Shown: one piece after another, positions 1,687 to 63,989 of the stretch | Layout: each line of letters begins with the position of its first letter | Position numbering within the stretch: position 1 is the first letter of the stretch | From: a virus | IMG/VR virus record: IMGVR_UViG_3300025536_000013 | Coordinates: 1 to 64,000 of that record | Strand: one strand, 5' to 3' | DNA: 64,000 nucleotides | The notes under the pieces: generated by a model | What the model saw: the letters and a program-made list of their open reading frames with translations, nothing else | Databases searched by the model: none | Told to the model about the DNA's origin: nothing | Made by a program: the position numbers and the translations under genes

Positions 1687-2375
1687 GCAAGTACCACTCC
1701 GAACTCGGCCAGGACGAGCGGCTCAACCGCGAGTTGTTCCACGACCGCCGCGGCCTGACCTTCGTGGACGTGGGCGCGTTCGACGGCGTGGAGTTCTCCA
1801 ACACGCTGGCGTTCGAGAAGGACTTCGGCTGGCGGGGCGTCTGCATCGAGCCGCACCCGGAGCGGTTCCAGATGTGCGCCGCCAACCGACCGGGCAGCAT
1901 CTGCGTCAACGCGGCGGCGGGCAGCAAGAGCGGCACGCAGCGGTTCCTCAAGATCAGCTGTGAGAAGTTCAGCCAGTTCGACATGCTCAGCTGCACGGTG
2001 GACGCCGCCCACGACCGACGCCGCATCGCTCACGACAACTGGCGGAAGCAGTACGGCGGCGACATCACCGAGATCGACGTGCCGGTGTTGCCGCTCTGGC
2101 AGGTGCTGCTGGAGCACCGCATCTTCACCGTGGACTACCTGACCATCGACGTGGAGGGGTCCGAGTTCGAGGTGCTCAAGGGCATCGAGTGGGCGGCGAC
2201 CCACGTCAACGTCATCGAGTTCGAGGTGGCCTACCGCGACACCGGTGCCGACCTGCGCGAGACGGCGGAGATCTACGACTACCTGGAGGCCCGTAACTTC
2301 CGTCACGGCTTCGACCTGGCTGAGGGCCGCGACCGGGTGTTCATCAACAATCAACTGAAATGGAGCCTCCGATGA
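1683..2375 (+). CDS. FkbM-family SAM-dependent methyltransferase
   Basis: FVDVGAFDGVEFSN...GVCIEPHPERFQMCAANR...YLTIDVEGSEFEVLKG matches the FkbM/Methyltransf_21 pattern (VDVGAxxG, xEPxP, DVEGxE). Confidence 0.8.
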   Translation: MSKYHSELGQDERLNRELFHDRRGLTFVDVGAFDGVEFSNTLAFEKDFGWRGVCIEPHPERFQMCAANRPGSICVNAAAGSKSGTQRFLKISCEKFSQFDMLSCTVDAAHDRRRIAHDNWRKQYGGDITEIDVPVLPLWQVLLEHRIFTVDYLTIDVEGSEFEVLKGIEWAATHVNVIEFEVAYRDTGADLRETAEIYDYLEARNFRHGFDLAEGRDRVFINNQLKWSLR

Positions 2376-16990: not shown

Positions 16991-18127
16991 ATGAACGCGG
17001 TGATGGAGAAGGCTTTCACTGGCAACGGCACCGCCAAGGTGTTCGCCGAGCCGATCAACAAGAGCCTGGGCGACTTCGCCGTGAGCATCGCCCGGATCAA
17101 GACCGGCAGCGGCGACCGCGAGCAGGTCGAGAAGCGGCTGGCCAAGGTCTACGGCAGCTCGTGGCAGACCGGCGACGCCCCGAAGCGCAAGACGCCGCTG
17201 AGCGAGGACTCCGGTCCGGTCGGCGGCTACCTCGTGCCCACGGACATCGCCTGGAGCATCATGAAGGACGCGGCGGAGGACTCGATCTTCCTTGCCAAGG
17301 GCTTCGTCCAGCCGATGACCAGCCGGACGCTGCTGCTGTCGATCCCCGACCCGACGCGGAACAACAGCATCCCGCTCGGTTCCAACATGTTCGGCGGCAT
17401 GATCTTCAACTGGCAGTCGAGCCAGCTCAACAACGCTGCCAAGGGCGAGACCGAGCCGGCGTTCAGCCAGGTGGAGGTGGTGGCCCAGGAGCTGACTGGC
17501 TACCTGGTCTGCTCGAACCAGCTGGCGATGGACGCGCCAGGCATGGACGCCTTCCTCAAGCGCTTCGTGCCGCGGGGCGTGGCCAACCAGGTGGACCAGG
17601 CGTGCTTCCGTGGGCCGGGTCCGGGCGGCGGTGGGCCGACGGGCTTGGTGTCCGCTGGCTGCACGCTCACGGCGACCCGTGCGGGCGGCAACGACGTGAC
17701 CCAAGCCGACCTGTCCTCGATGTACGCCCGGCTCATGCCTGGCAGTGAGAGGACGGCGGTGTGGGGCATCAGCCCGACGGCGCTGGACCGGATCACCCGC
17801 CTCAGCATGCCCGGCATCCTCATCATGTTGCCCGGCGACGACGGCTCTACCGGCCTGCTCTACGGCAAGCCGTTCTTCAAGACGGAGAAGCTGCCGGACG
17901 TCGGCACCATCGGCGACGTGCTGCTGTTCGATCCGAACTGCTACGTCATCGGCTGGCGCGACCTGCTCATCGACTTCTCCGACCAGCAACAGGATCAGTT
18001 CGTCAAGGGTCAGTGCTCGTGGCGGGTGGTGGCCCGCATCGGCGGCGGTCCGATGATCAAGGCACCGGTCACGCTGGCGTCCCAGTCCGCGACCCAGGGG
18101 GCCATCGCCGTGCAACTCTCGGCGTAA
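16991..18127 (+). CDS. HK97-fold major capsid protein paralog 1 (no delta domain)
   Basis: GGAGG lies upstream. SGPVGGYLVPTDI...FGGMIFNW...LTGYLVCSNQL...LLYGKPFFKTEKLP...GDVLLFDPNCYVIGWR...RVVARIGG matches the Phage_capsid (HK97) pattern. Confidence 0.8.
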   Translation: MNAVMEKAFTGNGTAKVFAEPINKSLGDFAVSIARIKTGSGDREQVEKRLAKVYGSSWQTGDAPKRKTPLSEDSGPVGGYLVPTDIAWSIMKDAAEDSIFLAKGFVQPMTSRTLLLSIPDPTRNNSIPLGSNMFGGMIFNWQSSQLNNAAKGETEPAFSQVEVVAQELTGYLVCSNQLAMDAPGMDAFLKRFVPRGVANQVDQACFRGPGPGGGGPTGLVSAGCTLTATRAGGNDVTQADLSSMYARLMPGSERTAVWGISPTALDRITRLSMPGILIMLPGDDGSTGLLYGKPFFKTEKLPDVGTIGDVLLFDPNCYVIGWRDLLIDFSDQQQDQFVKGQCSWRVVARIGGGPMIKAPVTLASQSATQGAIAVQLSA

Positions 18128-44649: not shown

Positions 44650-44955
44650 CTACCTTTCGTCTCCCGAGCCATGGAGCTTGCCACGCTCTTTGCGGGAGGC
44701 AAGCTTGTCAAGGTTAATCTGAGCCACATCGGAGAGGCTCCAGCCACAGTCGCTGCACAGGTTAGCAATGTACCAGAGCACATCACCGAGCTCCTTCTTC
44801 ACGAGCTCTTCCGGCCACTCATCATCTCGGAGCTGTTTCTTCACGAGCTCCAATACTTCGCCTGCCTCGCCGCCGAGTCCGAGGGCTGGATACAGTATAG
44901 GCTGTTTGTAGATCGCAGTCTCTCGTGCTCGGCTCTGATACTCGTCGAATGTCAT
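44650..44955 (-). CDS. MazG-like nucleoside triphosphate pyrophosphohydrolase
   Basis: [14 protein letters not shown]...[16 protein letters not shown]...[12 protein letters not shown]...[21 protein letters not shown] is the classic MazG pattern. Confidence 0.8.
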
Positions 44956-45221: not shown

Positions 45222-45874
45222 GACAAAGACCGAATCAACTCGTCGAGTGCGTAGGCATCGAGCTCAGGAGTCGCGACCTTCTTTGCCTTCTGCTTCAAGA
45301 GCTCCTTGCACTTCCAGCACCGCTCAGAAGTCTTGCTGTTAAACTCGCCACATGCCTTACACAGTTTCATCTTTCGAGTCTTTGGCACGTCCTCAACTGG
45401 AGCCATGGCCCCGGAAGAATTGGTCCTGGCAGCGAGCTCCCGGAGCTTGTCACTCCGCCATTTGAACAAGTGCTTCGCTTCGTCGAGGCGAGACTTGACA
45501 TGAAGCGGGTCGCCGTTGACATGGAGGAGCGCGAACAACCAGTCGAGCTGCTTCTGCGTGAGGTAGCATGGCTCAGCGTGTTCGCGGTTCTTCTGCGGCT
45601 TCTCCGGAGGCAAGCGCGGAAGAGGCCCGTCCTCTGGAATCGGGTCCTTGTTCAAGACCCACTGACCGTCTCGCTGCGAGAACCGCAAAGGCTTCTTGCG
45701 TCCAAGCATGTTAACGAGGAACTCGGACCACGGCTTGCGGTCCTCGTGATGAGCAATGTCGTCATGGGTCAGGAGCTCTGCTCCGGCCACCGGCCCGTTA
45801 ACCTGGTCTAGTATCTCCCGTGGGAGATTGTCGGGATCGTAGAACTCGCGTTTGGGCGTCGGTCGATAGCTCAT
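45218..45874 (-). CDS. hypothetical protein with a C-terminal zinc ribbon
   Basis: The ORF is 218 aa. CKACGEFNSKTSERCWKC is present. Confidence 0.55.
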   Translation of the reverse strand: MSYRPTPKREFYDPDNLPREILDQVNGPVAGAELLTHDDIAHHEDRKPWSEFLVNMLGRKKPLRFSQRDGQWVLNKDPIPEDGPLPRLPPEKPQKNREHAEPCYLTQKQLDWLFALLHVNGDPLHVKSRLDEAKHLFKWRSDKLRELAARTNSSGAMAPVEDVPKTRKMKLCKACGEFNSKTSERCWKCKELLKQKAKKVATPELDAYALDELIRSLS

Positions 45875-46332
45875 GCTGTCCTCCCGGCTTTTGTTAGCCC
45901 ACCGTCATGTAACCAAGAACGGTACTTTACCAGTGCGTGGTCATTCGACTCGAGGTCCGTGCGCCCGAGGCACACGAGACCGACTGCATCAGTAACGTAC
46001 GGGCCTGCACCAGGAACTTTGTCGAGGGTCTTGGCCTGCTCCCACACCCTGGATGCCCGACGAAGGAGCGAGGCCCGTCGATGCTGCAGACCGCACGGCC
46101 TGCAGCAAGCGACGAGGTCGTCGTACTCGGCACTCTGCAGCGCCTGGCGCGACGGCCACATCGACAACATGGCGCGCAGGCTAGTCTCAGCCTGGGCCCG
46201 CGTGGCTCGGCTCAGCAGCACAGAGGCTGCGAACACGCGCCAGGCGCACCCGAGACCAGCTTGCAGTATGATCCCGTCCCAGACTGGCGGAGCCTGAGAC
46301 TCCGCCAGCTGGGACATGAGGACGTGTTTCAT
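45871..46332 (-). CDS. HhH-GPD superfamily (EndoIII/MutY-like) DNA glycosylase-like protein
   Basis: ATGA couples it at 46332. LDKVPGAGPYVTDAVGLVCLG is a helix-hairpin-helix plus Gly/Pro loop. A downstream SNDH supplies a candidate catalytic Asp. Confidence 0.6.
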   Translation of the reverse strand: MKHVLMSQLAESQAPPVWDGIILQAGLGCAWRVFAASVLLSRATRAQAETSLRAMLSMWPSRQALQSAEYDDLVACCRPCGLQHRRASLLRRASRVWEQAKTLDKVPGAGPYVTDAVGLVCLGRTDLESNDHALVKYRSWLHDGGLTKAGRTA

Positions 46333-46574
46333 ATTACCCTGTAGCCTCCGCCGCAAATTTGCCTGGACTCACGAAGCACCCGGAAGATCCGCGGCTCGCG
46401 AGTCACTGGCTTCGGTTCAGTCGATGGACGCGGCTTCTTGACAGTCACCCGCTTCTTGGCCGCGCACCCTTCACACAGTCTCTTCGTGCTCAGCCTCTCG
46501 ACTCCACAACTGGTGCACAGTCCCCGCTTGAGGAGACGAGCCTGCCGGAGCTTCGCAGTCTTACTGGTCGCCAT
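46329..46574 (-). CDS. small basic zinc-ribbon protein
   Basis: The start is ATG 46574. CTSCG...CEGC is present. The sequence is K/R-rich. Confidence 0.5.
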   Translation of the reverse strand: MATSKTAKLRQARLLKRGLCTSCGVERLSTKRLCEGCAAKKRVTVKKPRPSTEPKPVTREPRIFRVLRESRQICGGGYRVI

Positions 46575-46684: not shown

Positions 46685-47563
46685 TCAGAAGGCATCAATC
46701 ACTGCCTGCAGTCGAGCGAGCTTCGCCTTGACTGCAGCACTCTGTTCTGTGGATAGAGCCTCTCCCTCCACGCCATCGCCTGTAGAATCGCCCCGAGGGA
46801 CGACGACCGTGGGCGCTGGGCTCTTGAGTTCGCCGATCGGATACCCACCCTCCAACAAAGCATCGCGGAGGGCGAACCACGGCGCGTCTCCATGCGGATC
46901 CTGCCGAATCGCTGCACAGAGCTGTGGGACTGGGTAGCGGTACGCGTTGGCAAAGCTCGGCGCTCCCTCGGCATACTGGGCGGGACCGTAGTACAAGCCC
47001 CAATGATCGGCGCACACCGGACCGTAGCCTAGAGCCTTGCTCGTCGGATCTTCCAGCGGCATGTTGCAATAGCAGCACCGATTAAGGTCCTTGCTGCACT
47101 GCGCCATGAAGTCCACCGGATCGCCACCGTTGAGCTGGTTGAAGAACGCCCTCTCGGCTGGAAGCAGCTCCCGGCGGTCGTTCACGAGAAAGTTCCCGTT
47201 CACGAAGCACCCGGCGTACTCTTCATTGCCGACGGGGTCCTTGGTTCCTGGGTCCAGCTGACCGGTCTTGAGGCACACGGTGCCACGTCGACTGAGGTAC
47301 AGCTTGAACCGACGGTCCAAGTACGACACGCGAATGGAGGGACGCTTGAGACCCCGCCCGATGGCCACGAGGAAAGAGTCACAGACGAACTGAATGGCAG
47401 TGCCGACCTTCACGGTGTCGCGGCCTGCGCCGCATGCCCGGTGGAGGTGGAACCACAGCCAGTGCTGATCGTTCTCGTGGAGACGGAGGAACTCGTCAAT
47501 AACTTGACGATGAGAGAAGCGGGAGTTGATGATCTCCCCTGTGCGATCGTTTCTGACTTGCAT
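46685..47563 (-). CDS. DUF6011-like protein with a C-terminal TIGR02996-like module
   Basis: CCYCNMPLEDPTSKALGYGPVCADHWG fits the C.C..L..P.S...G.GP.C pattern. The C-terminus has LCAAIRQDPHGDAPWFALRDALLEGG. Confidence 0.6.
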   Translation of the reverse strand: MQVRNDRTGEIINSRFSHRQVIDEFLRLHENDQHWLWFHLHRACGAGRDTVKVGTAIQFVCDSFLVAIGRGLKRPSIRVSYLDRRFKLYLSRRGTVCLKTGQLDPGTKDPVGNEEYAGCFVNGNFLVNDRRELLPAERAFFNQLNGGDPVDFMAQCSKDLNRCCYCNMPLEDPTSKALGYGPVCADHWGLYYGPAQYAEGAPSFANAYRYPVPQLCAAIRQDPHGDAPWFALRDALLEGGYPIGELKSPAPTVVVPRGDSTGDGVEGEALSTEQSAAVKAKLARLQAVIDAF

Positions 47564-50003: not shown

Positions 50004-51065
50004 TCATCTTGACCCCTTCTTTCGATAGAATCGAGTCACAACAACAGAGTTATACTTGTTGATATGTTCTCCGCCAACCCTCTTGAACCCACGGGGGACT
50101 CGATCTTCCCATCCGCCGTGGAACTCGACGCCGAGTGACCGAACGCCAGACCAATCGCCGTCCCAAAAACCTGGCAAGCTCTCTGAACCCTCGACGTCGA
50201 CCTTGACCACGGTCGGCTTGAAGCACGCAAGCAGCCCCGCAAGGTCCACCTTCTGAACGCGGACCCGTGACCCCGGGCGCTCTTGCGCCGAGCGCTTGTA
50301 GGTGAGCCGAGGGTCGGAGTCGACGTAGATGGCGTCGGAGCCGACGGCGGCTTGTATCAGTGTGCCATTGGGGTTGTTCATCCGATACAGTCGTGCATTC
50401 TCGGCATCGGGTTCGACGCCTATGCTGCGAGCCGGACACCACTGGGCAAAGTATCCGGCGTGGGCGCCGAGGTCAAGGACCACGTCGTCCGAGCGGATGT
50501 CGAGATGACACCACTCCGGCTGCTCGGCCCTGATGTTCAAGTCCACGGTGCCCGGTCGATACCAGCTACCTTGGCTCCAAGCGTACTTGAGCCGACTCAA
50601 GACCGCGGCCTCAGCCTCGTCAACTGATGCGACTTGCACGTGGTCAAAGTCGCGTATCACCTGTCGATAGCGCTCGGCAACTCTCAGCAGGGCCTCGTCG
50701 TCGAATTCCTCCGCACCTCGGGCTCGGCGACGTCGAAGCAGTTCTTCGTCTCCGGGGTCGAGGAAGAGGACTAGCAGGTCTTTGTCCCAGAACCCGCGTT
50801 GCTCGCAGCTCGGCTCGCGGTCGAACACCGAGTCGTACACAGCTGATGTCACTGGCCCGAATCGATCGCAGACATAGAGCTTGTCGGGATCATAGAGACA
50901 CTTCCATAGCTCGAAGCACATGTTCCCAGCCACTGCCTGCTGGTGGAAGTCTGCACCACGCGGGCTACGGTACTTCACGTGCGCAGCCCACGGCAGACGC
51001 TCGCAGAGCTCTCTCCACAGAGTCGTCTTTCCGGAGCAATCACATCCTTCGCACGCTACGATCAT
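50004..51065 (-). CDS. thymidylate-kinase-like (d)NMP kinase fused to an FkbM-family methyltransferase
   Basis: The N-terminus MIVACEGCDCSGKTT fits the ExxDxxGK(S/T)T P-loop of dTMP kinases. The C-terminus VVLDLGAHAGYF...VEPDAENARLY...VKVDVEGSE fits the FkbM pattern. ATGA couples it to the upstream gene. Confidence 0.7.
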   Translation of the reverse strand: MIVACEGCDCSGKTTLWRELCERLPWAAHVKYRSPRGADFHQQAVAGNMCFELWKCLYDPDKLYVCDRFGPVTSAVYDSVFDREPSCEQRGFWDKDLLVLFLDPGDEELLRRRRARGAEEFDDEALLRVAERYRQVIRDFDHVQVASVDEAEAAVLSRLKYAWSQGSWYRPGTVDLNIRAEQPEWCHLDIRSDDVVLDLGAHAGYFAQWCPARSIGVEPDAENARLYRMNNPNGTLIQAAVGSDAIYVDSDPRLTYKRSAQERPGSRVRVQKVDLAGLLACFKPTVVKVDVEGSESLPGFWDGDWSGVRSLGVEFHGGWEDRVPRGFKRVGGEHINKYNSVVVTRFYRKKGSR

Positions 51066-51997
51066 AGCAGCTCCTTCAGCGCAGCAAGGCCTTTGGAGTA
51101 AGACTCAGCACGCACGGTCTCTAGGGTCCGAGCCAAGGGCTCAAGCGCCTGGACCAACCGACCGCGCCGATAGAACCCGGCGCCGAGGTCCTTGTAGCAA
51201 GGTTCGTCGCAACAAATGGCCGCAGCTCCGCTGGCAATGGCCTCTCGCACTCCTGCACCGCCGGCCATGTCGTCCTTCATCGAACAGACGACGTAGCGCA
51301 CGTCGCGCAGAAGGGCGAAGTAGGACTCGCGCGTCGGGCAGCTGAGTATTTCCACATGTGGACTGGGCTCATGCTTCTGGAGATACCCTGACGGATCAGT
51401 CAACACGAATCGTGCCCTGCCTCTGAGGGCCTCCGCGGCAGCAACGAACTCCCGATGGCCAGAGTAGTCGCTAGCCGAACAGCGGTGAGAGAATAGAAAG
51501 TCGACCGGGCGCCACAGCACCTCCTCGTCGTTCCAGTTGAACGAACACACGTGCGGCTGCACGCCAAACAGTCTCTGCACGACGTCACCAACGGTCTTGT
51601 TCATGACCGCCACGGCATCAGCAGCCTCGAGGCTATCTCGCTGCCGATCGAGCATCCAGGTGTTGATGCCGAGAGGAAGGAGATGGTTGACTTGCACGAC
51701 GCGTCGAACACTCCGCTTCAGGACTGCGGAGTCGAGCTCGCGGTGGCTGATCAGTGCGTCAATGCCAGCGAGATCGAGTCGCGGGAGCTCCAGTCGCTGT
51801 GTGCGGTTGTCCGGCGGAATGTCGATGCGCCTCAACTCGACGCCGGGAGGATCGTAGCTAGCCCCGTTCGGCCAGAAAAGGACTGCCCCGAGCTTGCGCG
51901 CCTGGTACGAGGCCATGCGGCTCACACAACAGACGTCGGTGAGCTGTACGCCGGTGTTCTTGTCTTGGACGGAGAAGAAGGGGAGGACGGCGATCAT
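51062..51997 (-). CDS. GT-B-fold (GT1/GT4-like) glycosyltransferase candidate
   Basis: AGGAG lies upstream. The C-terminal ...VVCSMKDDMAGGAGVREAIASGAAAICCDEP resembles the E..G....EA.A.G.P motif of GT-B enzymes. Support is weaker than for the other calls. Confidence 0.45.
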   Translation of the reverse strand: MIAVLPFFSVQDKNTGVQLTDVCCVSRMASYQARKLGAVLFWPNGASYDPPGVELRRIDIPPDNRTQRLELPRLDLAGIDALISHRELDSAVLKRSVRRVVQVNHLLPLGINTWMLDRQRDSLEAADAVAVMNKTVGDVVQRLFGVQPHVCSFNWNDEEVLWRPVDFLFSHRCSASDYSGHREFVAAAEALRGRARFVLTDPSGYLQKHEPSPHVEILSCPTRESYFALLRDVRYVVCSMKDDMAGGAGVREAIASGAAAICCDEPCYKDLGAGFYRRGRLVQALEPLARTLETVRAESYSKGLAALKELL

Positions 51998-52533: not shown

Positions 52534-52969
52534 CTAACAGCCTCCTCAGCTTCCTCAACCTGACCTCGTCCACCCCTGCAGCCTCGCTCACCCTGAGCAG
52601 CTGTCGAAGCCACCGTTTGCTCTTGTTCTTAAGCCCGAGCCTCTCTGCGTCTGCTAGCCGAGCTGCGCCTTTCATAGCCCTACCCTTGAGCACCTTGTCC
52701 CGGTGGTTGTCTGCCCGCGAGCCGAGAAACACGTGCTCAGGCTTCACGCACTCCGGATTGTCGCACCGATGACAGAGACACAGCACAAAATCCACCGCTG
52801 GATACGCCGATAACATCAGCCCGCGGAGCTCGGCCCTGAGTTCTGGCATCTCCAGACACTCGTCCTCTGCTCCCAGTCCCAACGCTTCGCCGAAACACGA
52901 CACCGTGGGCGTCGACTCCTGGGGCACGAGCACACGATGGGCAACAGCGGCCATCACTCTATCCTTCAA
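52526..52969 (-). CDS. HNH homing-endonuclease-like protein
   Basis: CLCHRCDNPECVKPEHVFLGSRADNHRD matches the HNH_3 signature. It abuts the 3' end of the polymerase gene. Confidence 0.8.
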   Translation of the reverse strand: MKDRVMAAVAHRVLVPQESTPTVSCFGEALGLGAEDECLEMPELRAELRGLMLSAYPAVDFVLCLCHRCDNPECVKPEHVFLGSRADNHRDKVLKGRAMKGAARLADAERLGLKNKSKRWLRQLLRVSEAAGVDEVRLRKLRRLLGG

Positions 52970-55900
52970 GGACCTTCCCCCTCAGCGCCCGGGCGCACTC
53001 GAATTGCTTCACAGGCTTCGTCCAATACGGAGCCCTAACCCCCTCGACCAGCAACGGAAAATCCGGTGCCCAATCGGGTGGCTCGGACATTATCGACAGC
53101 ATCTTATGCAACTGGTCCGACTCGACAACGATTTCGTCGTGGACATGCATGCACGGGTTGAGGCCTTCAGCCTCGAATCGCACAAGAGCATGGGCCATGA
53201 GGTCTCGGCAGATTGCCTGCACCGCGTTCTCGCAGTTATGCACGATGACTGGACCGTATTCAGTCATCACCGTGTATCGGTGTCGCGGTCCACAGTTGAG
53301 AAGATCATATACAGGAGAGATTCCCATATAAGACCACAAGCTGTTCTGGAGTGGCGCCTTTTTTGAGGTAAGAGACGAGTGTATTTGGGCTCGCTTTCCA
53401 TGGACCGCCTTTCCGAAGGAACATCGCCAGTGGTATCGGTTTCCCCCCAAAGACAACGTATTTTGTACGACGTGTGTTGTTTGTGCTTTCGTTCGGAGTG
53501 ACCATACGGACATTTCCCGGTTCATAGTGTCCGTCGTTGTCTGTCCTATCGAGCCATAAGGACAAATCGTCGAATCCTGGTATTGTTGTGATGTACATAG
53601 CAAACGCTTCAAAACTCTCTGTCCATTCCTGATAAACTTTGATGCCCCTTGCACCGTAACGATCCCAAGCTTGATCAGTCTCATTATTGCAGCGTCGTAT
53701 GATGTCTGCCCATGCACGATGCCACCGCACATAGAGCTTATGAGTCGCGAAGCCTGTTTGTTCGAGTAAATTGACAATGCGTTTTTGTTCTCTGTATCGC
53801 TTTGCACAGCCAGTTGTACAGTATCTTCGTCCTTTTCCTTTTCGCAAACCGCCAAGATTGACAGCAACAGCTTCTCCACAGATGCACGTGCACCCGACAA
53901 CGTAATTATTGTATCCGAGTCTAATCGGCTCTGTCTGCACGACCAAGGCATGGAACTTGCTGCCGATCTTAGGCACCGCAACGTAGCATCTGCGTCCAAG
54001 CGAATCACTGACTTCCATCTCATACCATCGTGAATCAAGTGGTCTTCTGTGACTGCTACGCCCAGCCATGTGCCTATCTCCCTTTCTCCGTTGTACACAT
54101 ATCCATCTGTCTTGACCCAAGACCCACCATCCCACACCCTATCTTGCGCAGTGACGCTAACTATCGATTTGATGCCGTGGTCAGTCAGTATCTTTGTCTC
54201 CGGACCAAAACAGAGACTCCCGCCATAAGTTCCGCGTCGTTGTCCGTGCGGATGGAGAAACGTCACTGTGGGCACAGTCATCACGCGGCCCATTGCCACA
54301 GCCCACTTCGGCGTCAGGTCCTCGATTCGCACGTCGCGGTAGTAGAGGCGCCGCCCGCTCGGCAAGCGTATGACCATATTGTCGGCTTCGCGGTAAAAAT
54401 CGCACCGACCGACGTGGGTCGACATGCCGTGCCGGACGCACGCCATCGCCGCGTCACCAAACTGCTTCCATAGTCGAGGTATATTGGGGAATGTATCTCG
54501 ATACTTCTTGACAAGTGCTCTAGACTCTTCCTCGCCCATAGTGAAATCTCGGCGGAGCTTATCGCCGGAGTGGCTGGACATGAAGCGGTCGAAAGCTCTC
54601 TTGAAGCCAGCCCAACTGAGGCCGTAGCCGCAGCCCAACACAATCTGCTTCGACACGACTCGCTCCCACGAGTCCTTGTTCGGCTTGAAGCCATAGAGGT
54701 CCGTCGCGAACTCGATGTACACGTCCTTGTCTTGATCAGCGAAGGTGTTGAGCAGCCGATCCTCGCGCGCGAGCCACGCGACTCCGCGAGCCTCGACTGC
54801 AGAGTAGTCGGCGATGCAAAGATCACCGCGGACACATCCACGAGTCAGGCAGTTGATCACCGCGCCCACGGTGCAGCTCTGAGCAGAGTTAGTCTCTCGC
54901 ATCTTGGCAGTCGTCTTGTCTGCCGCCTCTCGAAGTTTGTCGTAGTCGAGAACGCTGGACAGCAGTCCAGGCACGTCGACGTGAACTAACGGAATGGGAA
55001 AGTTCTGCGGCTGCAGTTGTCGGCCGGCCCATCGGCCAGTGTGGGCTCGGTGGTACACGTGCTGATCGCGCACTCGACCGTCTTCCTCCAAGGCAAGCAT
55101 CATGGCGAGCTTATTGCCGCCGGTCCGCACTAGCTCGTTGCGGAGCACCAAGATGTCCTGGAGTCCCGCAAAGGCATCGGGGCACTCATCAGGCTCGCCG
55201 AAGTAGAACTCCTCGGGCTTCTGGAATAGCTCGAACATAGCCGGCCGACTGATAGACGTGAGCTTAAATCCACGGGCCTCGAGCCAGCCAGTCATCTGCT
55301 TGTGCGAGCGCGGGTTGACGCTGCTGGTGAGCTCGTCGAACTCCGCGCCGGCGACGGACATGTTGTAGTCGTACAGATTGCGCAAGTGCTGCACGAGCGG
55401 CTTGCAGATGGGGATGCCACGGTCGTTGATCTTGACGTCCACGTCGAGCACGTCTGGCTCGTCGACATCCTTGACTTGGCTGTAGACTTTCTCCAACAAG
55501 CGCACATCTCGACGGCAGTACTCGACGAACTGATTCCACACCTGGTCGTTGCCCACGAAGTACTGCGGCACACCGTTGCGGATCTTGACCTTGCTAATCA
55601 TGTCGATGAGCATCGAGCCAGTTTTGTCCTTGCCGCGACCCTCCAAGAGCTTGCCGAGCTCGTCGAGCCGACCAGGGAGACCTTTGGCACGAGATGCTCG
55701 GACTGTGTCGAAAAACGTGGCCGGTTCGCCTACGAACTTCTCCCATGCGAGCGAGTCGAAGTCTGCATTGTGCGCACAGAGCGTTCGCTCTTTTGCTGCA
55801 CTGATGTAGGCCTGTGGTACAGGCTCTCCTTGTCGCCACACGTGGTCGACTCCGTCGACGCTCAGCACACAGCAGGCAAGCCGAGTCGACTCGTCCGCAA

Positions 55901-55994
55901 AGTACCGTCTAGCCCCGTGTTCAAGGTTGTTGGTACTCATCGTCTCGAAGTCGACGAATGCAACTTTGTCGCCTGGTTTCCAGTTAGTCTTCAT
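52959..55994 (-). CDS. family A DNA polymerase with 3'-5' exonuclease domain, interrupted by an intein
   Basis: AAGGAG lies upstream. The exonuclease motifs are FVDFET and AHNADFD. The polymerase motifs are DLCIADYSAVEAR, SKQIVLGCGYGLS and VHDEIVVE. The extein junction is TYGGSL|intein|CENAVQAICRDL. Confidence 0.9.
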   Translation of the reverse strand: MKTNWKPGDKVAFVDFETMSTNNLEHGARRYFADESTRLACCVLSVDGVDHVWRQGEPVPQAYISAAKERTLCAHNADFDSLAWEKFVGEPATFFDTVRASRAKGLPGRLDELGKLLEGRGKDKTGSMLIDMISKVKIRNGVPQYFVGNDQVWNQFVEYCRRDVRLLEKVYSQVKDVDEPDVLDVDVKINDRGIPICKPLVQHLRNLYDYNMSVAGAEFDELTSSVNPRSHKQMTGWLEARGFKLTSISRPAMFELFQKPEEFYFGEPDECPDAFAGLQDILVLRNELVRTGGNKLAMMLALEEDGRVRDQHVYHRAHTGRWAGRQLQPQNFPIPLVHVDVPGLLSSVLDYDKLREAADKTTAKMRETNSAQSCTVGAVINCLTRGCVRGDLCIADYSAVEARGVAWLAREDRLLNTFADQDKDVYIEFATDLYGFKPNKDSWERVVSKQIVLGCGYGLSWAGFKRAFDRFMSSHSGDKLRRDFTMGEEESRALVKKYRDTFPNIPRLWKQFGDAAMACVRHGMSTHVGRCDFYREADNMVIRLPSGRRLYYRDVRIEDLTPKWAVAMGRVMTVPTVTFLHPHGQRRGTYGGSLCFGPETKILTDHGIKSIVSVTAQDRVWDGGSWVKTDGYVYNGEREIGTWLGVAVTEDHLIHDGMRWKSVIRLDADATLRCLRSAASSMPWSCRQSRLDSDTIITLSGARASVEKLLLSILAVCEKEKDEDTVQLAVQSDTENKNALSIYSNKQASRLISSMCGGIVHGQTSYDAAIMRLIKLGIVTVQGASKFIRNGQRVLKRLLCTSQQYQDSTICPYGSIGQTTTDTMNREMSVWSLRTKAQTTHVVQNTLSLGGNRYHWRCSFGKAVHGKRAQIHSSLTSKKAPLQNSLWSYMGISPVYDLLNCGPRHRYTVMTEYGPVIVHNCENAVQAICRDLMAHALVRFEAEGLNPCMHVHDEIVVESDQLHKMLSIMSEPPDWAPDFPLLVEGVRAPYWTKPVKQFECARALRGKVLEG
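53235..54212 (-). mobile_element. intein (326 aa) in the DNA polymerase
   Basis: The N-terminus is CFGPETKILTDHG (block A). GVAVTEDHLI is the TxxH block B. The C-terminus is VYDLL...GPVIVHN followed by Cys+1. It is in frame with the exteins. Confidence 0.8.
53305..54069 (-). CDS. homing-endonuclease-like ORF nested inside the intein in a different reading frame
   Basis: AGGGAG lies 8 nt upstream of ATG 54069. WHRAWADIIRRCNNETDQAWDRYGARGIKVYQEWTESFEAFAMYI...LDRTDNDGHYEPGNVRMVTPNESTNNTR matches a widespread phage family usually annotated as HNH/homing endonuclease. Confidence 0.6.
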   Translation of the reverse strand: MAGRSSHRRPLDSRWYEMEVSDSLGRRCYVAVPKIGSKFHALVVQTEPIRLGYNNYVVGCTCICGEAVAVNLGGLRKGKGRRYCTTGCAKRYREQKRIVNLLEQTGFATHKLYVRWHRAWADIIRRCNNETDQAWDRYGARGIKVYQEWTESFEAFAMYITTIPGFDDLSLWLDRTDNDGHYEPGNVRMVTPNESTNNTRRTKYVVFGGKPIPLAMFLRKGGPWKASPNTLVSYLKKGATPEQLVVLYGNLSCI

Positions 55995-58121: not shown

Positions 58122-58610
58122 TTACCCTTGGGCGGACACACGTCGGCTCCGCAACTTGACGTTAGCCCAAGTCTCCAGCACAGCGGGCTCGAAGTCTACG
58201 CCGACGCACGTGGCAAGCACGCGGAGCTCCGCCGTGAGCTCAGTCACGTTGGCTCCCACGCCGACACGCGAGGCCAGCACGACGGAGGCTAGGTTGACAA
58301 TCTTGATGAGCATGTGTCGCACGTTCTTGGACTCAGAGCCGTATCCCGGCACCCACAGCACATCTGCTGCGTTACACACGCTACAGCTGGCGATGGCTAC
58401 GTCGCCAATCGCGTCAACGAGCTCCGGTGTCCAGTCTTTGTGCGCGTAGCGAGGCTCCGGTCCCCACTCGTTCTGTTGCATGGACTTGAGCACCGGCTTC
58501 ACGAGCTCGCCGACCTCCTCGACGAGGCACAGCGCTGGGTACCAAGAATCCTGCTGTGGGTACATCTCGTCCACCCAGGCCTTGTGCTCAGCTTGAAGTC
58601 TGTCGAGCAT
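58122..58610 (-). CDS. MazG-like / all-alpha NTP pyrophosphatase domain protein
   Basis: AGGAGG lies upstream. ...LCLVEEVGELVK...ELVDAIGDVAIASCSV... has the EExGE and D..GD pattern of MazG-type enzymes. Confidence 0.55.
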   Translation of the reverse strand: MLDRLQAEHKAWVDEMYPQQDSWYPALCLVEEVGELVKPVLKSMQQNEWGPEPRYAHKDWTPELVDAIGDVAIASCSVCNAADVLWVPGYGSESKNVRHMLIKIVNLASVVLASRVGVGANVTELTAELRVLATCVGVDFEPAVLETWANVKLRSRRVSAQG

Positions 58611-58920
58611 GGTCTGCTTCCTCCTGGTACTGCCTCAAGATCCTGGGAGCCTTCCTCCAGACTCCGTTTATGCGGCGCAAATTTGCCGTGGGATTGAACC
58701 CGACGAACAGGTGCAGCAGCCTGCTCAGCTGCTCCTGCAGTTCTTCTACTGTTGGCTCGTGACGACGTCTCTTTCGCCTGAGCTCTGCAGGAACCTTGTA
58801 TCGGTTCCTACACGGCTTGCAGCGCCGATGCTTGCTAGTCAGCTTTCCTCCGCAGCAGATGCACAATCCAGCCGCGCGAAAGCGGTCTTGCCGAGCCCTC
58901 GCTTGCTCGCTGCTAGCCAC
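58588..58920 (-). CDS. basic zinc-ribbon protein
   Basis: AAGGAG lies upstream of the GTG. CICCGGKLTSKHRRCKPC is present. Confidence 0.5.
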   Translation of the reverse strand: MASSEQARARQDRFRAAGLCICCGGKLTSKHRRCKPCRNRYKVPAELRRKRRRHEPTVEELQEQLSRLLHLFVGFNPTANLRRINGVWRKAPRILRQYQEEADHARQTSS

Positions 58921-59623
58921 AGTGGAGCTCCTTCCATGCCTGGTCAGAAGACAGCGGTTCGACGAACATAGAACCAGCTTCTGTCGAGTTGTCAGTCTCT
59001 CGGGCTAAGTCTTTGACGTTCACGTGCAGAGAACCGACTGTCCAGTACAACTTGCCGAGGCTGAGCCCGACGGCGTCGGCGACGAACTTCTGCAAGTTGG
59101 TCAAGAGGATCAGGTCATAGGGCAGCACAGACCAGGCGTTGAGCGAGCGACTATAGACGTGTAGATCAAGTCCGTCAGTATTGAGAAAGTGCAAGTGGCT
59201 GATGCACGCAGGGATGTTGGCGTTGCGCGGACGGCTGTTGTCGGTGACTGTAGCCGACGCCGCGCGAGTGTCCTTACACTGTCGTAGGCACTGTATCGCA
59301 CGCTTGATGCCAGGCCAGGCTATGGGACCATAGGCCCCGACCATGAGCCCCTCTGTCAAGTACTTGTTGGCATGTTCGTTGTAAGCTTTGAGCACGAGTG
59401 CGCGCTCAGTATCCGTGTAGAAGAACAGCACATTGGCTCGAGCCCACCGAAGGTCGACCGGTCGAGCAGTCACGACGTTACGCATCGGGTCGTCGAGCAC
59501 GAGCGTGACGTGACACGCCTCGACGGTGCCCGAGACGTTGCACCCGTCCTCAGCCCTCCGCTGTCGGGTCGGAAGCGACAGAGCCTTGAGGAAGAGCTGA
59601 TTCGCGCACGCTGTCTGGTACAT
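58913..59623 (-). CDS. thymidylate-synthase (ThyA) family enzyme; dCMP-modifying type suspected
   Basis: AGGAG lies upstream. NIPACISHLHF...VYSRSLNAWSVLPYDLILL...LYWTVGSLHV aligns with E. coli ThyA APCHAFFQF...YQRSCDVFLGLPFNIAS...FVWTGGDTHL. Asp occupies the position of Asn177. Confidence 0.7.
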   Translation of the reverse strand: MYQTACANQLFLKALSLPTRQRRAEDGCNVSGTVEACHVTLVLDDPMRNVVTARPVDLRWARANVLFFYTDTERALVLKAYNEHANKYLTEGLMVGAYGPIAWPGIKRAIQCLRQCKDTRAASATVTDNSRPRNANIPACISHLHFLNTDGLDLHVYSRSLNAWSVLPYDLILLTNLQKFVADAVGLSLGKLYWTVGSLHVNVKDLARETDNSTEAGSMFVEPLSSDQAWKELHCG

Positions 59624-59936
59624 AGGCTCTCCTGATTAGCTGGCCCATCCAGTCGGTGACGCTGAGAACGTCGAAACCGTCCTCCGTAGGGCCGTTGGGA
59701 GCAAAGTTGATTCCGCACAAGGCTTCGGCGACTTCTTCCGGAGGCACTCCACACTGAAGCGAGATCGACACCACACGGGACAGGGAGTCGAGTATGCCGC
59801 GCTCGTAAGAGCCGAACACTCCACCGGTCACGAAGACTTCGCCGAGCTGGCCATCCTCTCGCTCGCCGAAGCTAGCGTAGTAAGCATGGCCGCCGATCCT
59901 CGTCTTCTGGGTCCAGGTGTAACGTCGCTCAGGCAT
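59550..59936 (-). CDS. TSCPD-domain-like protein
   Basis: HAYYASFGEREDGQLGEVFVTGG...LDSLSRVVSISLQCGVPPEEVAEAL resembles the TSCPD domain found at the C-terminus of class II RNRs. The 3' end overlaps the ThyA-like start. Confidence 0.45.
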   Translation of the reverse strand: MPERRYTWTQKTRIGGHAYYASFGEREDGQLGEVFVTGGVFGSYERGILDSLSRVVSISLQCGVPPEEVAEALCGINFAPNGPTEDGFDVLSVTDWMGQLIRRAYVPDSVRESALPQGSVASDPTAEG

Positions 59937-62355
59937 CGGTTTTCGTGAGCTCGTCATTTACGAGGTACCCCTGCCGTTGGCCGTCGTCGGATCGAAACCG
60001 TATAGCCACCTTCGATGCACCGTGTGACTTGCACTCGAATTTCACTCGGACAGAGGCACCGACAAGCTTAGTCCAGTCCTCGGACGAGGCCTTGCGAGAC
60101 CCCTTCCAGTCCTCGTCTGCGACATTCTCCCAGGCTTCCAGCAAGGGCGTCATCTGCCCACGAGTTATGACCTTCCACCCGCGACCAGACCAGCGCGTGG
60201 CATCGCTGCCAGATGCATCTGGTGCCTCGCAGGCTGCCTTGAACAAGGAGAGCAAGAGGCTCTCGTTCTCATGTGCCTCGTCAGATTCGGACATCGGGAA
60301 GTAGCCGAGGCGCCCGGCGGATTCTTCAAACGTAGTCGGGGTCACAAAGAACTCGTCGATGACTTCGGAGAGTATCGCGTCGGCTGCGTCCGCATACTCC
60401 CGACCAGCCAGGCGAAACCGCTCGAGCCTATCTACAGTTGTCCGGAGACTGTGCCGCCAGTCGACTTTGCCTGAGAGGTTCACGTGCACCAAACGTCGGG
60501 CGAGCTGAGCGTCTTGTTTGACCTCGATAGGAACACGAGTGTCAGTGAAGGCCACCACTGGCAAGTCGCCGAGCTTCACTGGACCGATGTAGGCTTTCCA
60601 GCTAGTAGAATCCGGGGTAAGGTTCAATACGAAGTCAGAGGCTTGCACTGCAGACTGCTTCGCTCTTTCAGCCTCCTTGAAAAACTCGTTGAAGCACAGA
60701 AACATGCCAGTGTCTTTGCTGTCTCGAATAGCTTGTCTAACACGTTCAATGTTCGCCGTCCACTGGACTGCGGTTGCCCCATCGCCAGCTATAGCCGCGG
60801 AGACCATCACCGTGCCGGTCTTCGCGCTGCTAGTCGGTCCGGAGACGAAGATCATGGGAGGCAGACCGACGCCTCCCTCTACGAAGCCCTTCGCAACGAG
60901 CATGAGCTTGACGAAACGAGGCTCGATGCCAGGACAGACTTGTTCGAGAACAGCCCAACCATCGACTCGCTTCTCCGGCGGAATGTATTTTGGCCGGAAC
61001 TGTGCAACGTTGTCGCGTGCCAAGGCTGGGGTCTGAACCACTACTCTCACTCGGTTGACGTCGCACTGGCGCACAAAGTGGCTGTACATCCGGCAGCCGA
61101 AGACCGGTGTCAGGTGCGGATAACCGTACTGTGCTAGGTCGAACGTCTGTTCTAAGGTCGCCACCTTGGCCGCGTTACCGCCAGCTGAGGGCAACGCAGC
61201 AATTATAGCCCTGACGTCTTTGACGTACGAGTCTCCATTGCTGTTGGTCCACCGGCCTTCCATACGCAGCACGTTATGGCCGCCCTGGAGCACAGAGTCC
61301 CTAGTCTCGTCGTCGATCGCCGAGTGGTGGAGTTTCAACGCGGCGCCGTACGCCACGCGAGCAACGTCGTTGGACAAGCCGAACTTGTCCTGGAGCACGT
61401 GCTTGGCGTGCTCCCAGTGGCAAAAGCCATCGAGGCAGTTATACAGGAGCTCGGAAGCAGATCCGCCGACAAACGCGGAGAAGGGGAAGAACCCGGGAGT
61501 GCGCCCGCCGTGCAAGAGTCCGTGGGCCTCGCACACGAAGCACTTGACTCCACGCTCGAAGACGTGGACCGGGGTGCCGGCCGCAGTGGAGCTCGGCGAG
61601 ACGGGGCACTTGTCGTGAGAGTAGCGCCCGCCGATCACTAGGCCCTCTTGCCGAAGCCACTCGACAACTGCACCGTCGTCGACAGAGTACTGCTTGAAGC
61701 GGCGGCGTAATGCTTTCATGTCAGAGGTCTGCTCGGAGACCACGATCTCCGTGCGAGGCAGCCGAGTGTCGGTCTTGAGCTCGAGGGAGTCATATCGCAC
61801 GCTGTCGCTGAGGCACAAGTATGCCACCGCGGCACACTCTTCCGCGGAGAATCTCTCCAGCGCACCGTAGACGAGCCGCAATCCTCCGCTCTTCGTCACC
61901 CAAGACATGGCGGGCCGAGGGTCGAACCAGACTAACAACTCACGAAGCTTCTTGTCGTCCCACTCCGTACTGTCGAGGTCGACTGCGGCGAGCATGTCCC
62001 GGCGAGACCAACGTGCGACTGGATCTTCCAAGGAACCGAAGCCATTTGTGCAAGCCTCTTTGAGCAGCCTCAAGGGGTCGAGGCTGCGGAGCGTCTCAAC
62101 GTCAGTTCCAGTCAGGTCGCGTACGGTGAGTTCAAACTCCTGCTCGCCTCCCCACTCAACACTCGGCTGGTCCGAGTGCTCTAGTGCGTCGACTGCGGCC
62201 ATCAATTCGTCGCGAGAGACTCCGAGCGCTTTGGCTGCTTTCTTGAACTGCGTCTCATCAGTGAACTTGGATTCCACTCGACCGACTAGCTTGTCTCTCT
62301 TCCTAGCTTCAATGAGAACTTTGCCCCGCGGTGCTCTTGTCAGCGTCAGTTTCAC
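59929..62355 (-). CDS. primase-helicase (P-loop, D5/VirE/P4-like)
   Basis: AGGAG lies upstream of the GTG. The ORF is 808 aa. It has a central Cys cluster CPV...CFVCEAHG and a Walker A FVSGPTSSAKTGT. Confidence 0.7.
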   Translation of the reverse strand: MKLTLTRAPRGKVLIEARKRDKLVGRVESKFTDETQFKKAAKALGVSRDELMAAVDALEHSDQPSVEWGGEQEFELTVRDLTGTDVETLRSLDPLRLLKEACTNGFGSLEDPVARWSRRDMLAAVDLDSTEWDDKKLRELLVWFDPRPAMSWVTKSGGLRLVYGALERFSAEECAAVAYLCLSDSVRYDSLELKTDTRLPRTEIVVSEQTSDMKALRRRFKQYSVDDGAVVEWLRQEGLVIGGRYSHDKCPVSPSSTAAGTPVHVFERGVKCFVCEAHGLLHGGRTPGFFPFSAFVGGSASELLYNCLDGFCHWEHAKHVLQDKFGLSNDVARVAYGAALKLHHSAIDDETRDSVLQGGHNVLRMEGRWTNSNGDSYVKDVRAIIAALPSAGGNAAKVATLEQTFDLAQYGYPHLTPVFGCRMYSHFVRQCDVNRVRVVVQTPALARDNVAQFRPKYIPPEKRVDGWAVLEQVCPGIEPRFVKLMLVAKGFVEGGVGLPPMIFVSGPTSSAKTGTVMVSAAIAGDGATAVQWTANIERVRQAIRDSKDTGMFLCFNEFFKEAERAKQSAVQASDFVLNLTPDSTSWKAYIGPVKLGDLPVVAFTDTRVPIEVKQDAQLARRLVHVNLSGKVDWRHSLRTTVDRLERFRLAGREYADAADAILSEVIDEFFVTPTTFEESAGRLGYFPMSESDEAHENESLLLSLFKAACEAPDASGSDATRWSGRGWKVITRGQMTPLLEAWENVADEDWKGSRKASSEDWTKLVGASVRVKFECKSHGASKVAIRFRSDDGQRQGYLVNDELTKTDA

Positions 62356-63227: not shown

Positions 63228-63989
63228 CTAGAACTTCAAGCCGAGTTTCACAAGCTCAGGGACGCATCGGTCGATTCCGCCGTAATGGCACCAGTTGCAC
63301 GCGTCAGAGGGGCCAACCCAAGGAGTGCCGGTGCGAATGGCCATGACGGCGATGCGGACGCCCTGCATCGCGTGGACGGCGTCTTCGGTACGGAAGACGT
63401 AGTTCCAGAAGACGCCGGACGGGGAGGAGGCTGGGTCGACGCCGCGGGAGAGATACTTGCGAGGGAGTATCAATGCGCCAGGATCGACACGAGTGTTCAA
63501 GACCGCGGAAGCCCCGAGGGCGTAGGCAGCCATCTGGTAGAAGCTCTCGCTGAGAAGCACGAAGCCGTCGCGAGTGCTCGTCTTGATGTCGTAGACCCTG
63601 AGCTGTCCGTGCTCCTTGCGCACCTGGTCGAGTCGACCGCGGACGTGGATGTCCTCTTTGGTAGGATCGTCTGGATGCGGCTTGATGACGAACTCCACTG
63701 GATGCTCGCTGAGCACCACGTCGGCAGTCGCGTTGCGTGGGTCCTGCACGTAGCTGACGAACATGCGAGCGGCCGCGTCGAGATCGGCGAGTGGATACTG
63801 GTCCTTGCCAGAATGCATCTTCTCGACGGCCTTGATGACGTCCTTGGTCTTGTGGAACTCGTCGGAGGCTGCGTGCATGGCCGTGCCAGTCTGGGCCGCG
63901 GGGCCGGAGTCATCGCGAAAGGAGAAGAGCTGCATGCTGACGGCCCTCCATGGGCAGACTGTCATGGCGCGGAGCCCGGAGGCCCGCAC
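63228..63989 (-). CDS. PD-(D/E)XK nuclease, Cas4/RecB-like with Cys cluster
   Basis: GRLDQV...RVYDIKTS gives the D...DxK motif. FYQMAAYA gives QxxxY. An N-terminal Cys (TVCPW) plus the C-terminal CNWCHYGGIDRC give a Cas4-type 4-Cys pattern. Confidence 0.7.
   Translation of the reverse strand: MRASGLRAMTVCPWRAVSMQLFSFRDDSGPAAQTGTAMHAASDEFHKTKDVIKAVEKMHSGKDQYPLADLDAAARMFVSYVQDPRNATADVVLSEHPVEFVIKPHPDDPTKEDIHVRGRLDQVRKEHGQLRVYDIKTSTRDGFVLLSESFYQMAAYALGASAVLNTRVDPGALILPRKYLSRGVDPASSPSGVFWNYVFRTEDAVHAMQGVRIAVMAIRTGTPWVGPSDACNWCHYGGIDRCVPELVKLGLKF

Follow-up and report, generated by a model that had tools for sequence, protein, structure and literature searches.

The 64,000-nucleotide stretch analyzed here (positions 1 to 64,000 of IMG/VR virus record IMGVR_UViG_3300025536_000013; hereafter the window) carries on its minus strand, at 58913-59623, an open reading frame (ORF) for a protein of the thymidylate synthase (ThyA) fold, and we propose that this ThyA-like protein is probably, though by no means certainly, a flavin-dependent hydroxylase that acts on C5 of deoxycytidine monophosphate (dCMP) to give 5-hydroxy-dCMP. 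From the fold, the residue identities, the conservation across a clade of relatives and the linkage to neighboring genes, all of which were observed directly, we infer the substrate, the cofactor, the product and the roles of the neighbors. The protein probably represents a divergent and so far metagenome-only clade of an enzyme kind described in 2025-2026, within a system akin to the RB69/HY126/DLP3/RL38JI pathway.

The ORF encodes a true but distant member of the ThyA family, with similarity well beyond chance. Pfam Thymidylat_synt (PF00303) matched it with E 7e-9 and 35.6 bits (cut-off 24.3) and PHROG 160 with E 4e-16, while the top sequence match in the Protein Data Bank (PDB) was MilA, a CMP hydroxymethylase (E 6.5e-6), with bacterial ThyA next. 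The NCBIfam thymidylate-synthase equivalogs gave 18-34 bits, far under their cut-offs of 108-405 bits (TIGR03284, 22.4 bits against 108; NF002497, 23.8 against 327). An AlphaFold2 model built from 54 clade sequences reached a predicted local distance difference test score (pLDDT) of 96.3 and a predicted TM-score (pTM) of 0.92, and a Foldseek search with this model returned ThyA-family structures only, at E 1e-11 to 1e-13. The highest target-normalized TM-scores (TMt 0.75-0.77, E 1e-11) went to 9iqc and 9iqu, reportedly the structures of the HY126 enzyme AfhB solved with flavin and dCMP by He et al. in Nat Chem Biol in 2026, and this ranking is one reason for favoring a hydroxylase. RB69 gp48 is ~99% identical to the flavin- and dCMP-bound AfhB of 9iqc.

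Residue equivalences were established with HMMER against M. tuberculosis ThyA and MilA, with a profile against E. coli ThyA and with two MAFFT alignments; below, residues of the ThyA-like protein carry one-letter codes and family positions follow E. coli ThyA. The catalytic cysteine and the nucleotide-phosphate clamp are present (C140 for Cys146, R159/S160 for Arg166/Ser167 and R120 for Arg126), as are Y98 for Tyr94 and H200 for His207. An earlier sequence-only reading of the window, made by a model from the letters alone, had aligned SRSLNAWSVLPYD (residues 158-170, nt 59152-59114) with the Arg166-Asn177 segment of E. coli ThyA, and all of our alignments reproduce that placement. The surrounding landmarks also fall where it had put them: C140, within PACIS (nt 59212-59198), lies 19 residues before R159, compared with 20 between Cys146 and Arg166 in E. 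coli, and the downstream WT.G..H reads WTVGSLH. Its two substitutions are real as well, given that independent alignments concur in pairing N162 with Asp169 and D170 with Asn177, and the position that discriminates between uracil and cytosine holds Asp and no other residue. Asp at this position confers cytosine specificity, and the proposal that the substrate is dCMP rather than deoxyuridine monophosphate (dUMP) agrees with every characterized Asp177 homolog, making dCMP the likely substrate.

An ordinary thymidylate synthase (EC 2.1.1.45; dUMP to dTMP), which is what the Pfam and PHROG labels suggest, or a decayed, non-catalytic relic of one is the least credible explanation that we weighed. 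The former is contradicted by D170 in place of Asn177 and by the low NCBIfam scores, and the latter by Cys, Arg, Tyr, His and Asp residues that are invariant in 59 diverged clade proteins, which together with the pLDDT 96 model argues for an active enzyme; both were rejected on these grounds.

The substitutions extend into the cofactor site beyond the two first noticed. Against the fold and nucleotide-site residues shared with E. coli ThyA stand N64 (in WARANVLF) for Glu58, V166 for Gly173, I137 for Leu143 and Ile for His147, in addition to D170 and N162, and the protein lacks equivalents of Arg21, Tyr209 (N202), the Trp80/Trp82 folate wall and the C-terminal lid. Glu58 and Asp169 serve the activation and binding of methylene-tetrahydrofolate. 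Glu58 mutants of ThyA are nearly inactive, and the E. coli ThyA D169N mutant (PDB 1bjg/1dna) reportedly fails to open the imidazolidine ring of the cofactor; because of these defects in cofactor activation, a protein with N64 and N162 should not run folate chemistry. The sequence-only reading had left the product as either 5-methyl or 5-hydroxymethyl dCMP. Both are probably wrong, since each requires methylene-tetrahydrofolate chemistry whose binding and ring-opening residues are missing here, and Asn at 169 marks hydroxylases.

The ThyA homologs RB69 gp48 and DLP3 gp80 convert dCMP to 5-hydroxy-dCMP, drawing the oxygen from O2 and using a loosely bound flavin (PMC13326640). The replacement of Asp169 by Asn is the sole active-site change common to all producers of 5-hydroxydeoxycytidine (5hodC) (Lee et al., NAR 2026, PMC13326640); nine further homologs with this change, from metaviromes, distant Straboviridae and RL38JI, all made 5hodC in vivo, active hydroxylases differ from one another at residues other than 169, and the 5-hydroxyl is then glycosylated on DNA in these phages (PMC13326640). 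N162 is this diagnostic residue, and its combination with D170 matches the published signature of 5-hydroxy-dCMP synthases, which supports the hydroxylase reading, as do the Val at 173 and the non-Tyr residue at 209 that the protein has in common with RB69 gp48. The motif reads RSLNAWSVLPYD in the ThyA-like protein, RSQNMVSVWPYD in RHph_N34 gp135 and RSQN...V...D in RB69 gp48. More broadly, the protein resembles the 5-hydroxy-dCMP synthases of this group (RB69 gp48, AfhB, DLP3 gp80, RL38JI, RHph_N34) in its ~236-aa ThyA fold without a long C-terminal lid and in its Cys nucleophile, Arg-Ser phosphate clamp, Tyr94, Asp177, Asn169 and Val173.

We then compared these positions across homologs. An exhaustive profile search returned 6,742 homologs at E<=1e-3, from which the best 150 were taken together with word-index matches, and the residue census covered 204 full-length proteins: 129 of an Asp169 type, 59 in the clade of the ThyA-like protein and 16 in a third group. 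Found among the best 150 matches, the 59 clade proteins come from metagenomes only, have a median length of 253 aa, score 211-359 bits ahead of a sharp fall to <=114 bits for the next matches, and are monophyletic with 100% neighbor-joining (NJ) bootstrap. Cys146, Arg166, Tyr94, His207 and Asp177 are present in 59/59 and Ser167 in 58/59. Position 169, by comparison, is Asn in 33, Ser in 11, His in 8 and another residue in 5, with 2 gaps and never Asp; Glu58 is found in 0/59 (Asn replaces it in 48), Val173 is found in 55/59, and position 143 is most often Arg (30), followed by Gln (6), Val (6), Ile (5) and Ser (5). The Asp169-type proteins (~315 aa, MilA-like or 'pyrimidine hmase') have Glu58, Asp143, Gly173, Asp177 and Tyr209 without exception and Arg21 in 126/129, whereas 0/75 of the non-Asp169 proteins keep Glu58 or Gly173. 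The census thus shows a nucleotide site under strong constraint and a folate/cofactor site remodeled as one block across the clade, and this coordinated change around an invariant nucleotide site is a further argument for a hydroxylase.

The third group consists of 16 longer proteins (~315 aa; P0131, P0133, P0140, P0146 and 12 others) that have Val173, lack Glu58 and show Asn or Ser at position 169; they keep Asp143 and Tyr209 and carry a motif, RSQN(V/I)VMV(F/W)PYD, closely like that of the RL38JI-type enzyme. Judged by these residues, they are probably further uncharacterized hydroxylases.

A folate-dependent 5-hydroxymethylase of dCMP (or CMP) resembling T4 gp42 or MilA, with the glycosyltransferase decorating 5-hydroxymethylcytosine as in T-even phages, is an alternative that we consider improbable. 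MilA, which acts in the mildiomycin pathway (5b6d, 5jnh), is the best overall match (TMq 0.77-0.80, in addition to its top rank in the PDB search), and MilA together with the MilA-like proteins of Streptomyces and environmental phages, the nearest neighbors in sequence and structure, shares Asp177 and the PYD and GSLH motifs with our protein. T4 gp42 also has Asp at 177 and a similar size (246 aa), and the pyrophosphatase, kinase and glycosyltransferase genes described below follow the T4 gp56/gp1/gt logic, in which b-gt adjoins gene 42. The MilA-like proteins, however, are ~315 aa long with a C-terminal extension, and the clade has none of their Arg21, Glu58, Asp143, Asp169, Gly173 and Tyr209. 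Four residues weigh against it: Glu58, Asp169, Gly173 and the acidic residue that admits water at the Leu143 position are kept in 129/129 Asp169-type proteins, T4 gp42 and the MilA-like enzymes, yet all four are absent here (N64, N162, V166, I137). The Asp169-to-Asn change is, moreover, reported to be specific to hydroxylases (PMC13326640). In the profile comparison that the sequence-only reading had proposed, hhalign scored the clade profile at 161 against the long Asn/Ser169 group, 137 against the MilA-like proteins, 89 against RHph_N34, 69 against RB69/AfhB and 59 against T4 gp42. The weakest of these scores thus belongs to gp42, a folate-dependent enzyme that keeps Glu60, Asp171, Asp179 and an acidic 143, and the MilA-like proteins stand above the validated hydroxylases.

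Production of 5-methyl-dCMP by a dCMP methyltransferase, of the XP12 type or resembling the engineered N229D thymidylate synthase, would fit the pairing of D170 with the hydrophobic I137 at the water-excluding Leu143 position, and a rule quoted in PMC13326640 associates a hydrophobic residue at this position with methylation and an acidic one with hydroxymethylation. In the same paper residue 143 correlates with 'not methyl' and is not diagnostic of hydroxylases (PMC13326640), and the position varies within the clade. Reductive methylation needs folate binding and hydride transfer, whereas Glu58, Asp169, Gly173 and the long C-terminal lid are all missing; a strictly conserved glycosyltransferase would also have no acceptor on 5-methylcytosine, nor did the window yield a TET-like dioxygenase. 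A methyltransferase is very improbable in our assessment. The enzyme of Stenotrophomonas phage AXL3 was considered as an XP12-like dCMP methylase comparator and rejected, as it is of the Asp169/Asp143 type.

Several observations weigh against the hydroxylase reading. Identity to the validated 5-hydroxy-dCMP synthases is only 18-22% (19-22% between the clade and RB69/RHph_N34), and by hhalign, PDB and fold matches the overall similarity is higher to the Asp169-type, MilA-like proteins than to those hydroxylases. Glu58, which RB69 and AfhB keep, is Asn here; the acidic residue (Glu) of RB69 gp48 and DLP3 gp80 at the Leu143 position is replaced by I137, and mostly by Arg in the clade; and unlike AfhB the clade tolerates Ser or His at 169, with Asn in only 33/59 members. 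In an NJ tree from Poisson-corrected distances every non-Asp169 protein groups with RB69 and RHph_N34, at a bootstrap of only 37%, and the shared loss of Asp169 could for that reason be convergent. The glycosyltransferase is a probable assignment drawn from weak profiles and a low-confidence model, and the window yielded no flavin reductase. There are further differences from the known systems: the known enzymes have Thr at position 147, where this protein has Ile and most of the clade Trp, the phage is not a Straboviridae or Pootjesviridae myovirus, and its kinase carries an FkbM-like methyltransferase domain as a fusion.

These departures give a real but minor chance to an undescribed reaction at C5 (or elsewhere) of a cytosine nucleotide, proceeding through the Cys-C6 adduct with another cofactor or electrophile, or on a substrate that differs in its sugar or phosphate. 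Such a reaction would suit a pocket unlike those of both the folate enzymes and AfhB (Asn58, Trp147, a non-acidic 143, variable 169 and 209, no Arg21), the monophyly of the clade and its distance from RB69 and RHph_N34, and the company the gene keeps, namely radical-SAM and His-phosphatase genes in some relatives and FkbM methyltransferase domains in this phage. Hydroxylation nevertheless already accounts for the conserved glycosyltransferase as well as for D169N, N177D and V173; Glu58 is likewise missing from the RL38JI-type RHph_N34 (Phe there, in a local-pair alignment), and non-169 residues vary in active hydroxylases (PMC13326640). A similarly small chance attaches to an independently evolved, cofactor-switched ThyA lineage whose product is tailored in an undescribed way in this phage, or whose cofactor or chemistry differs from that of AfhB; the latter is suggested by the lost Glu58, the non-acidic 143 and the Ser or His tolerated at 169. 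One possibility for the tailoring is O-methylation by either FkbM methyltransferase, which would place 5-methoxycytosine or O-methylated glycosyl-5-hydroxycytosine in the DNA.

The hydroxylase reading draws additional support from the genes that travel with the ThyA-like gene. We compared eight contigs, the window and seven related ones (L003, L004, L006, L007, L009, L016 and L017), of which L016 and L017 are independent IMG/VR contigs left out of profile building. A MazG-like nucleoside triphosphate (NTP) pyrophosphohydrolase gene and a GT-B-like glycosyltransferase gene accompany the ThyA-like gene in 8/8, and a deoxynucleoside monophosphate (dNMP) kinase gene in 7/8, the eighth contig being truncated. 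The linkage itself is plain, and the functions of the individual neighbors are probable. The synthase gene of RB69 is flanked by the same three kinds of gene (NTP pyrophosphatase, dNMP kinase and GT-B-type glycosyltransferase), and in RHph_N34 (Pootjesviridae) a kinase, an NTP pyrophosphohydrolase, the synthase and a 340-aa protein without assigned function occur together. A glycosyltransferase conserved in this way requires a hydroxyl to act on, which the proposed product would supply.

Features of the window discussed in the text, with the basis of each assignment
Feature	Position	Strand	Length	Basis
ThyA-fold enzyme, candidate flavin-dependent dCMP C5-hydroxylase (5-hydroxy-dCMP synthase)	58913-59623	-	236 aa	sequence, model
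MazG-like all-alpha NTP pyrophosphohydrolase	58122-58610	-	162 aa	EEVGEL...DAIGD motif, family profile
Probable GT-B-fold glycosyltransferase	51062-51997	-	311 aa	weak profiles, low-confidence model
Kinase-methyltransferase fusion	50004-51065	-	353 aa	P-loop dNMP/thymidylate-kinase-like ~aa 1-150; FkbM-like ~aa 195-320
Free-standing FkbM-family methyltransferase	1683-2375	+	230 aa	Pfam Methyltransf_21 E 2.5e-22; NCBIfam fkbM_fam 63.6 bits (cut-off 37.7)
Stand-alone TSCPD-domain ORF	59550-59957	-	135 aa	Pfam TSCPD E 7e-14
Second, canonical small MazG pyrophosphohydrolase	44650-44955	-	101 aa	Pfam MazG E 2.9e-10
Portal	10495-12372			
HK97-type capsid	16991-18127			
Family-A polymerase	52959-55994	-		
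PD-(D/E)XK nuclease	63228-63989			

In each of the seven related contigs the MazG-like gene is the next one downstream of the ThyA-like gene. The window has a 110-aa Arg/Cys-rich ORF (58588-58920, minus strand) between the two, overlapping both; this ORF has a zinc-ribbon-like CICCGG...CKPCRNRY, is without a family match, is not conserved in the relatives and is called in one source annotation only. Pfam MazG and PRA-PH matches of the 162-aa protein are weak, and its family, which carries the motif EExGEL...D(A/V)GD, found its best PDB matches in MazZ (7ody, E 0.002), YpjD and 5ie9 when searched as a profile; the same profile recovers the canonical MazG of the window, and the RHph_N34 counterpart, which adjoins the synthase homolog, bears the annotation NTP pyrophosphohydrolase. 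We infer that the 162-aa protein converts dCTP or dCDP to dCMP, supplying the substrate and depleting canonical dCTP, and the canonical MazG may also take part in reshaping the nucleotide pool.

The 311-aa protein would be a glycosyltransferase that modifies DNA at the C5 hydroxyl. Its family gives weak Pfam matches to Glyco_trans_1_2 (E 0.002), Glycos_transf_1 and Glyco_transf_4, and in the PDB the family profile ranks GT-B enzymes first, with E ~0.4. The AlphaFold2 model is poor (pLDDT 45.6), because the protein index yielded only the protein itself and one relative, so that its Foldseek matches are taken as no more than a consistent trend: the top 49 are all GT-B glycosyltransferases, including MshA, PimA, BshA and the HY126 structure 9iqz, and the same GT-B templates are reported for the RB69 and DLP3 DNA arabinosyltransferases. 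A search with the family profile placed RB69 gp46 and RHph_N34 gp136 first at 5-7 bits, which is suggestive and not evidence; hhalign of the family gave an E of only 0.032 with RHph_N34 gp136 and detected no similarity to T4 beta-glucosyltransferase. No arabinose or NDP-sugar biosynthesis genes were recognized for this phage.

The kinase half of the fusion protein matches PHROG 761 thymidylate kinase (E 9e-19) and YorR in the PDB (E 0.008), with weak Pfam matches to Thymidylate_kin and AAA_33. Its homologs in the related contigs are unfused proteins of 165-171 aa, and the added methyltransferase domain, which scores 21.8 bits with Methyltransf_21 (cut-off 22.7) and E 6e-8 with NCBIfam fkbM_fam, likewise under the cut-off, is unique to this phage. 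Both this domain and the free-standing FkbM protein may be tailoring enzymes for the modified base or for its sugar, although a place for the latter in the modification pathway is speculative. The usual place of a TSCPD domain is the C-terminal end of a class II ribonucleotide reductase. Here the domain forms an ORF of its own, which shares 74 nt with the beginning of the ThyA-like gene, also overlaps the end of the upstream 808-aa gene, has 29% identity to the C-terminus of a ribonucleotide reductase in L003, lacks the motif Cys (LSVTD) and is not called in the source annotations; its membership in the module is uncertain.

Some of the related phages have a larger module, with a radical-SAM enzyme encoded right behind the polymerase, further MazG-like paralogs, a protein of the histidine-phosphatase family and a GT-A glycosyltransferase (Glyco_transf_8) (L004:4957-5901, L006:7356-8234, L004:8939-9454, L006:10462-11502). 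Several different cytosine decorations are therefore probably made within the clade.

By analogy to RB69 gp48 and HY126 AfhB, the hydroxylase reading implies the following route. C140 would attack C6 of dCMP while D170 reads and protonates the N3/N4 edge of cytosine, and the resulting C5 enamine would be oxidized by a reduced-flavin/O2 species bound where ThyA holds its folate; Y98 would then take the C5 proton as C140 leaves. The adjacent MazG-like enzyme would turn dCTP into dCMP and so remove the canonical competitor, the dNMP-kinase domain would phosphorylate 5-hydroxy-dCMP, a host nucleoside diphosphate kinase would complete the triphosphate, and the phage family-A polymerase would incorporate it. 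Glycosylation of the 5-hydroxyl on DNA by the GT-B-like protein would leave cytosine replaced by glycosylated 5-hydroxycytosine and the DNA protected from restriction and CRISPR nucleases. The gene set, as we read it, is that expected for DNA with glycosylated 5-hydroxycytosine, and the scheme parallels that of T4 (gp42, gp56 dCTPase, gp1 kinase and alpha/beta-glucosyltransferases), in which dCTP is depleted, dCMP is modified at C5 and phosphorylated, and the product is incorporated and glycosylated on DNA.

If this is correct, ThyA-homolog cytosine 5-hydroxylation would reach beyond T4-like and Rhizobium myoviruses to a metagenome-only clade in uncultured, high-GC tailed phages, and the folate-to-flavin switch would be accompanied by a coordinated loss of Arg21, Glu58, Asp169 and Gly173, a richer signature than D169N alone. 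These genomes would carry a hypermodified cytosine, probably glycosylated and possibly methylated, and such DNA would resist restriction and CRISPR nucleases and could bias sequencing and cloning. For this gene neither of the usual database labels, 'thymidylate synthase' or 'pyrimidine hydroxymethylase', would then be right, and the hydroxylase, the DNA glycosyltransferase and the kinase-methyltransferase fusion would be new enzymes for nucleic-acid biotechnology.

The source phage is a ~91-kb metagenomic contig of 58-65% GC, tailed, with an HK97-type capsid and a family-A polymerase. Megablast of 50-64 kb of the window against 50,697 phage records gave no match, no prophage copy turned up in the 185,579 species genomes scanned, and tblastn with the portal returned only 24-26% matches to Faecalibacterium and Bacillus phages, which are uninformative on the host. 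No tRNAs were found, and a PADLOC search for defense systems had no matches.

The polymerase ORF is 1011 aa long compared with ~680 aa in most relatives, and the extra ~330 aa fall in a low-GC stretch (53305-54135) without Pfam matches. In the polymerase frame this stretch contains intein-like motifs (LGVAVTEDHLIH ... SPVYD), and a 276-aa ORF in an alternative frame of the same strand carries an HNH-like DRxDNDGxYEPGNxR...STNN. Compared with L009:5969-6799, the alternative frame has 39% identity (139 bits) and the polymerase frame 33% (77 bits); the insert could represent an intein that has a homing endonuclease embedded in the other frame. Elsewhere on the minus strand, a 161-aa ORF (45871-46356) weakly matches HhH-GPD of the DNA glycosylase superfamily, and a 292-aa ORF (46685-47563) contains DUF6011.

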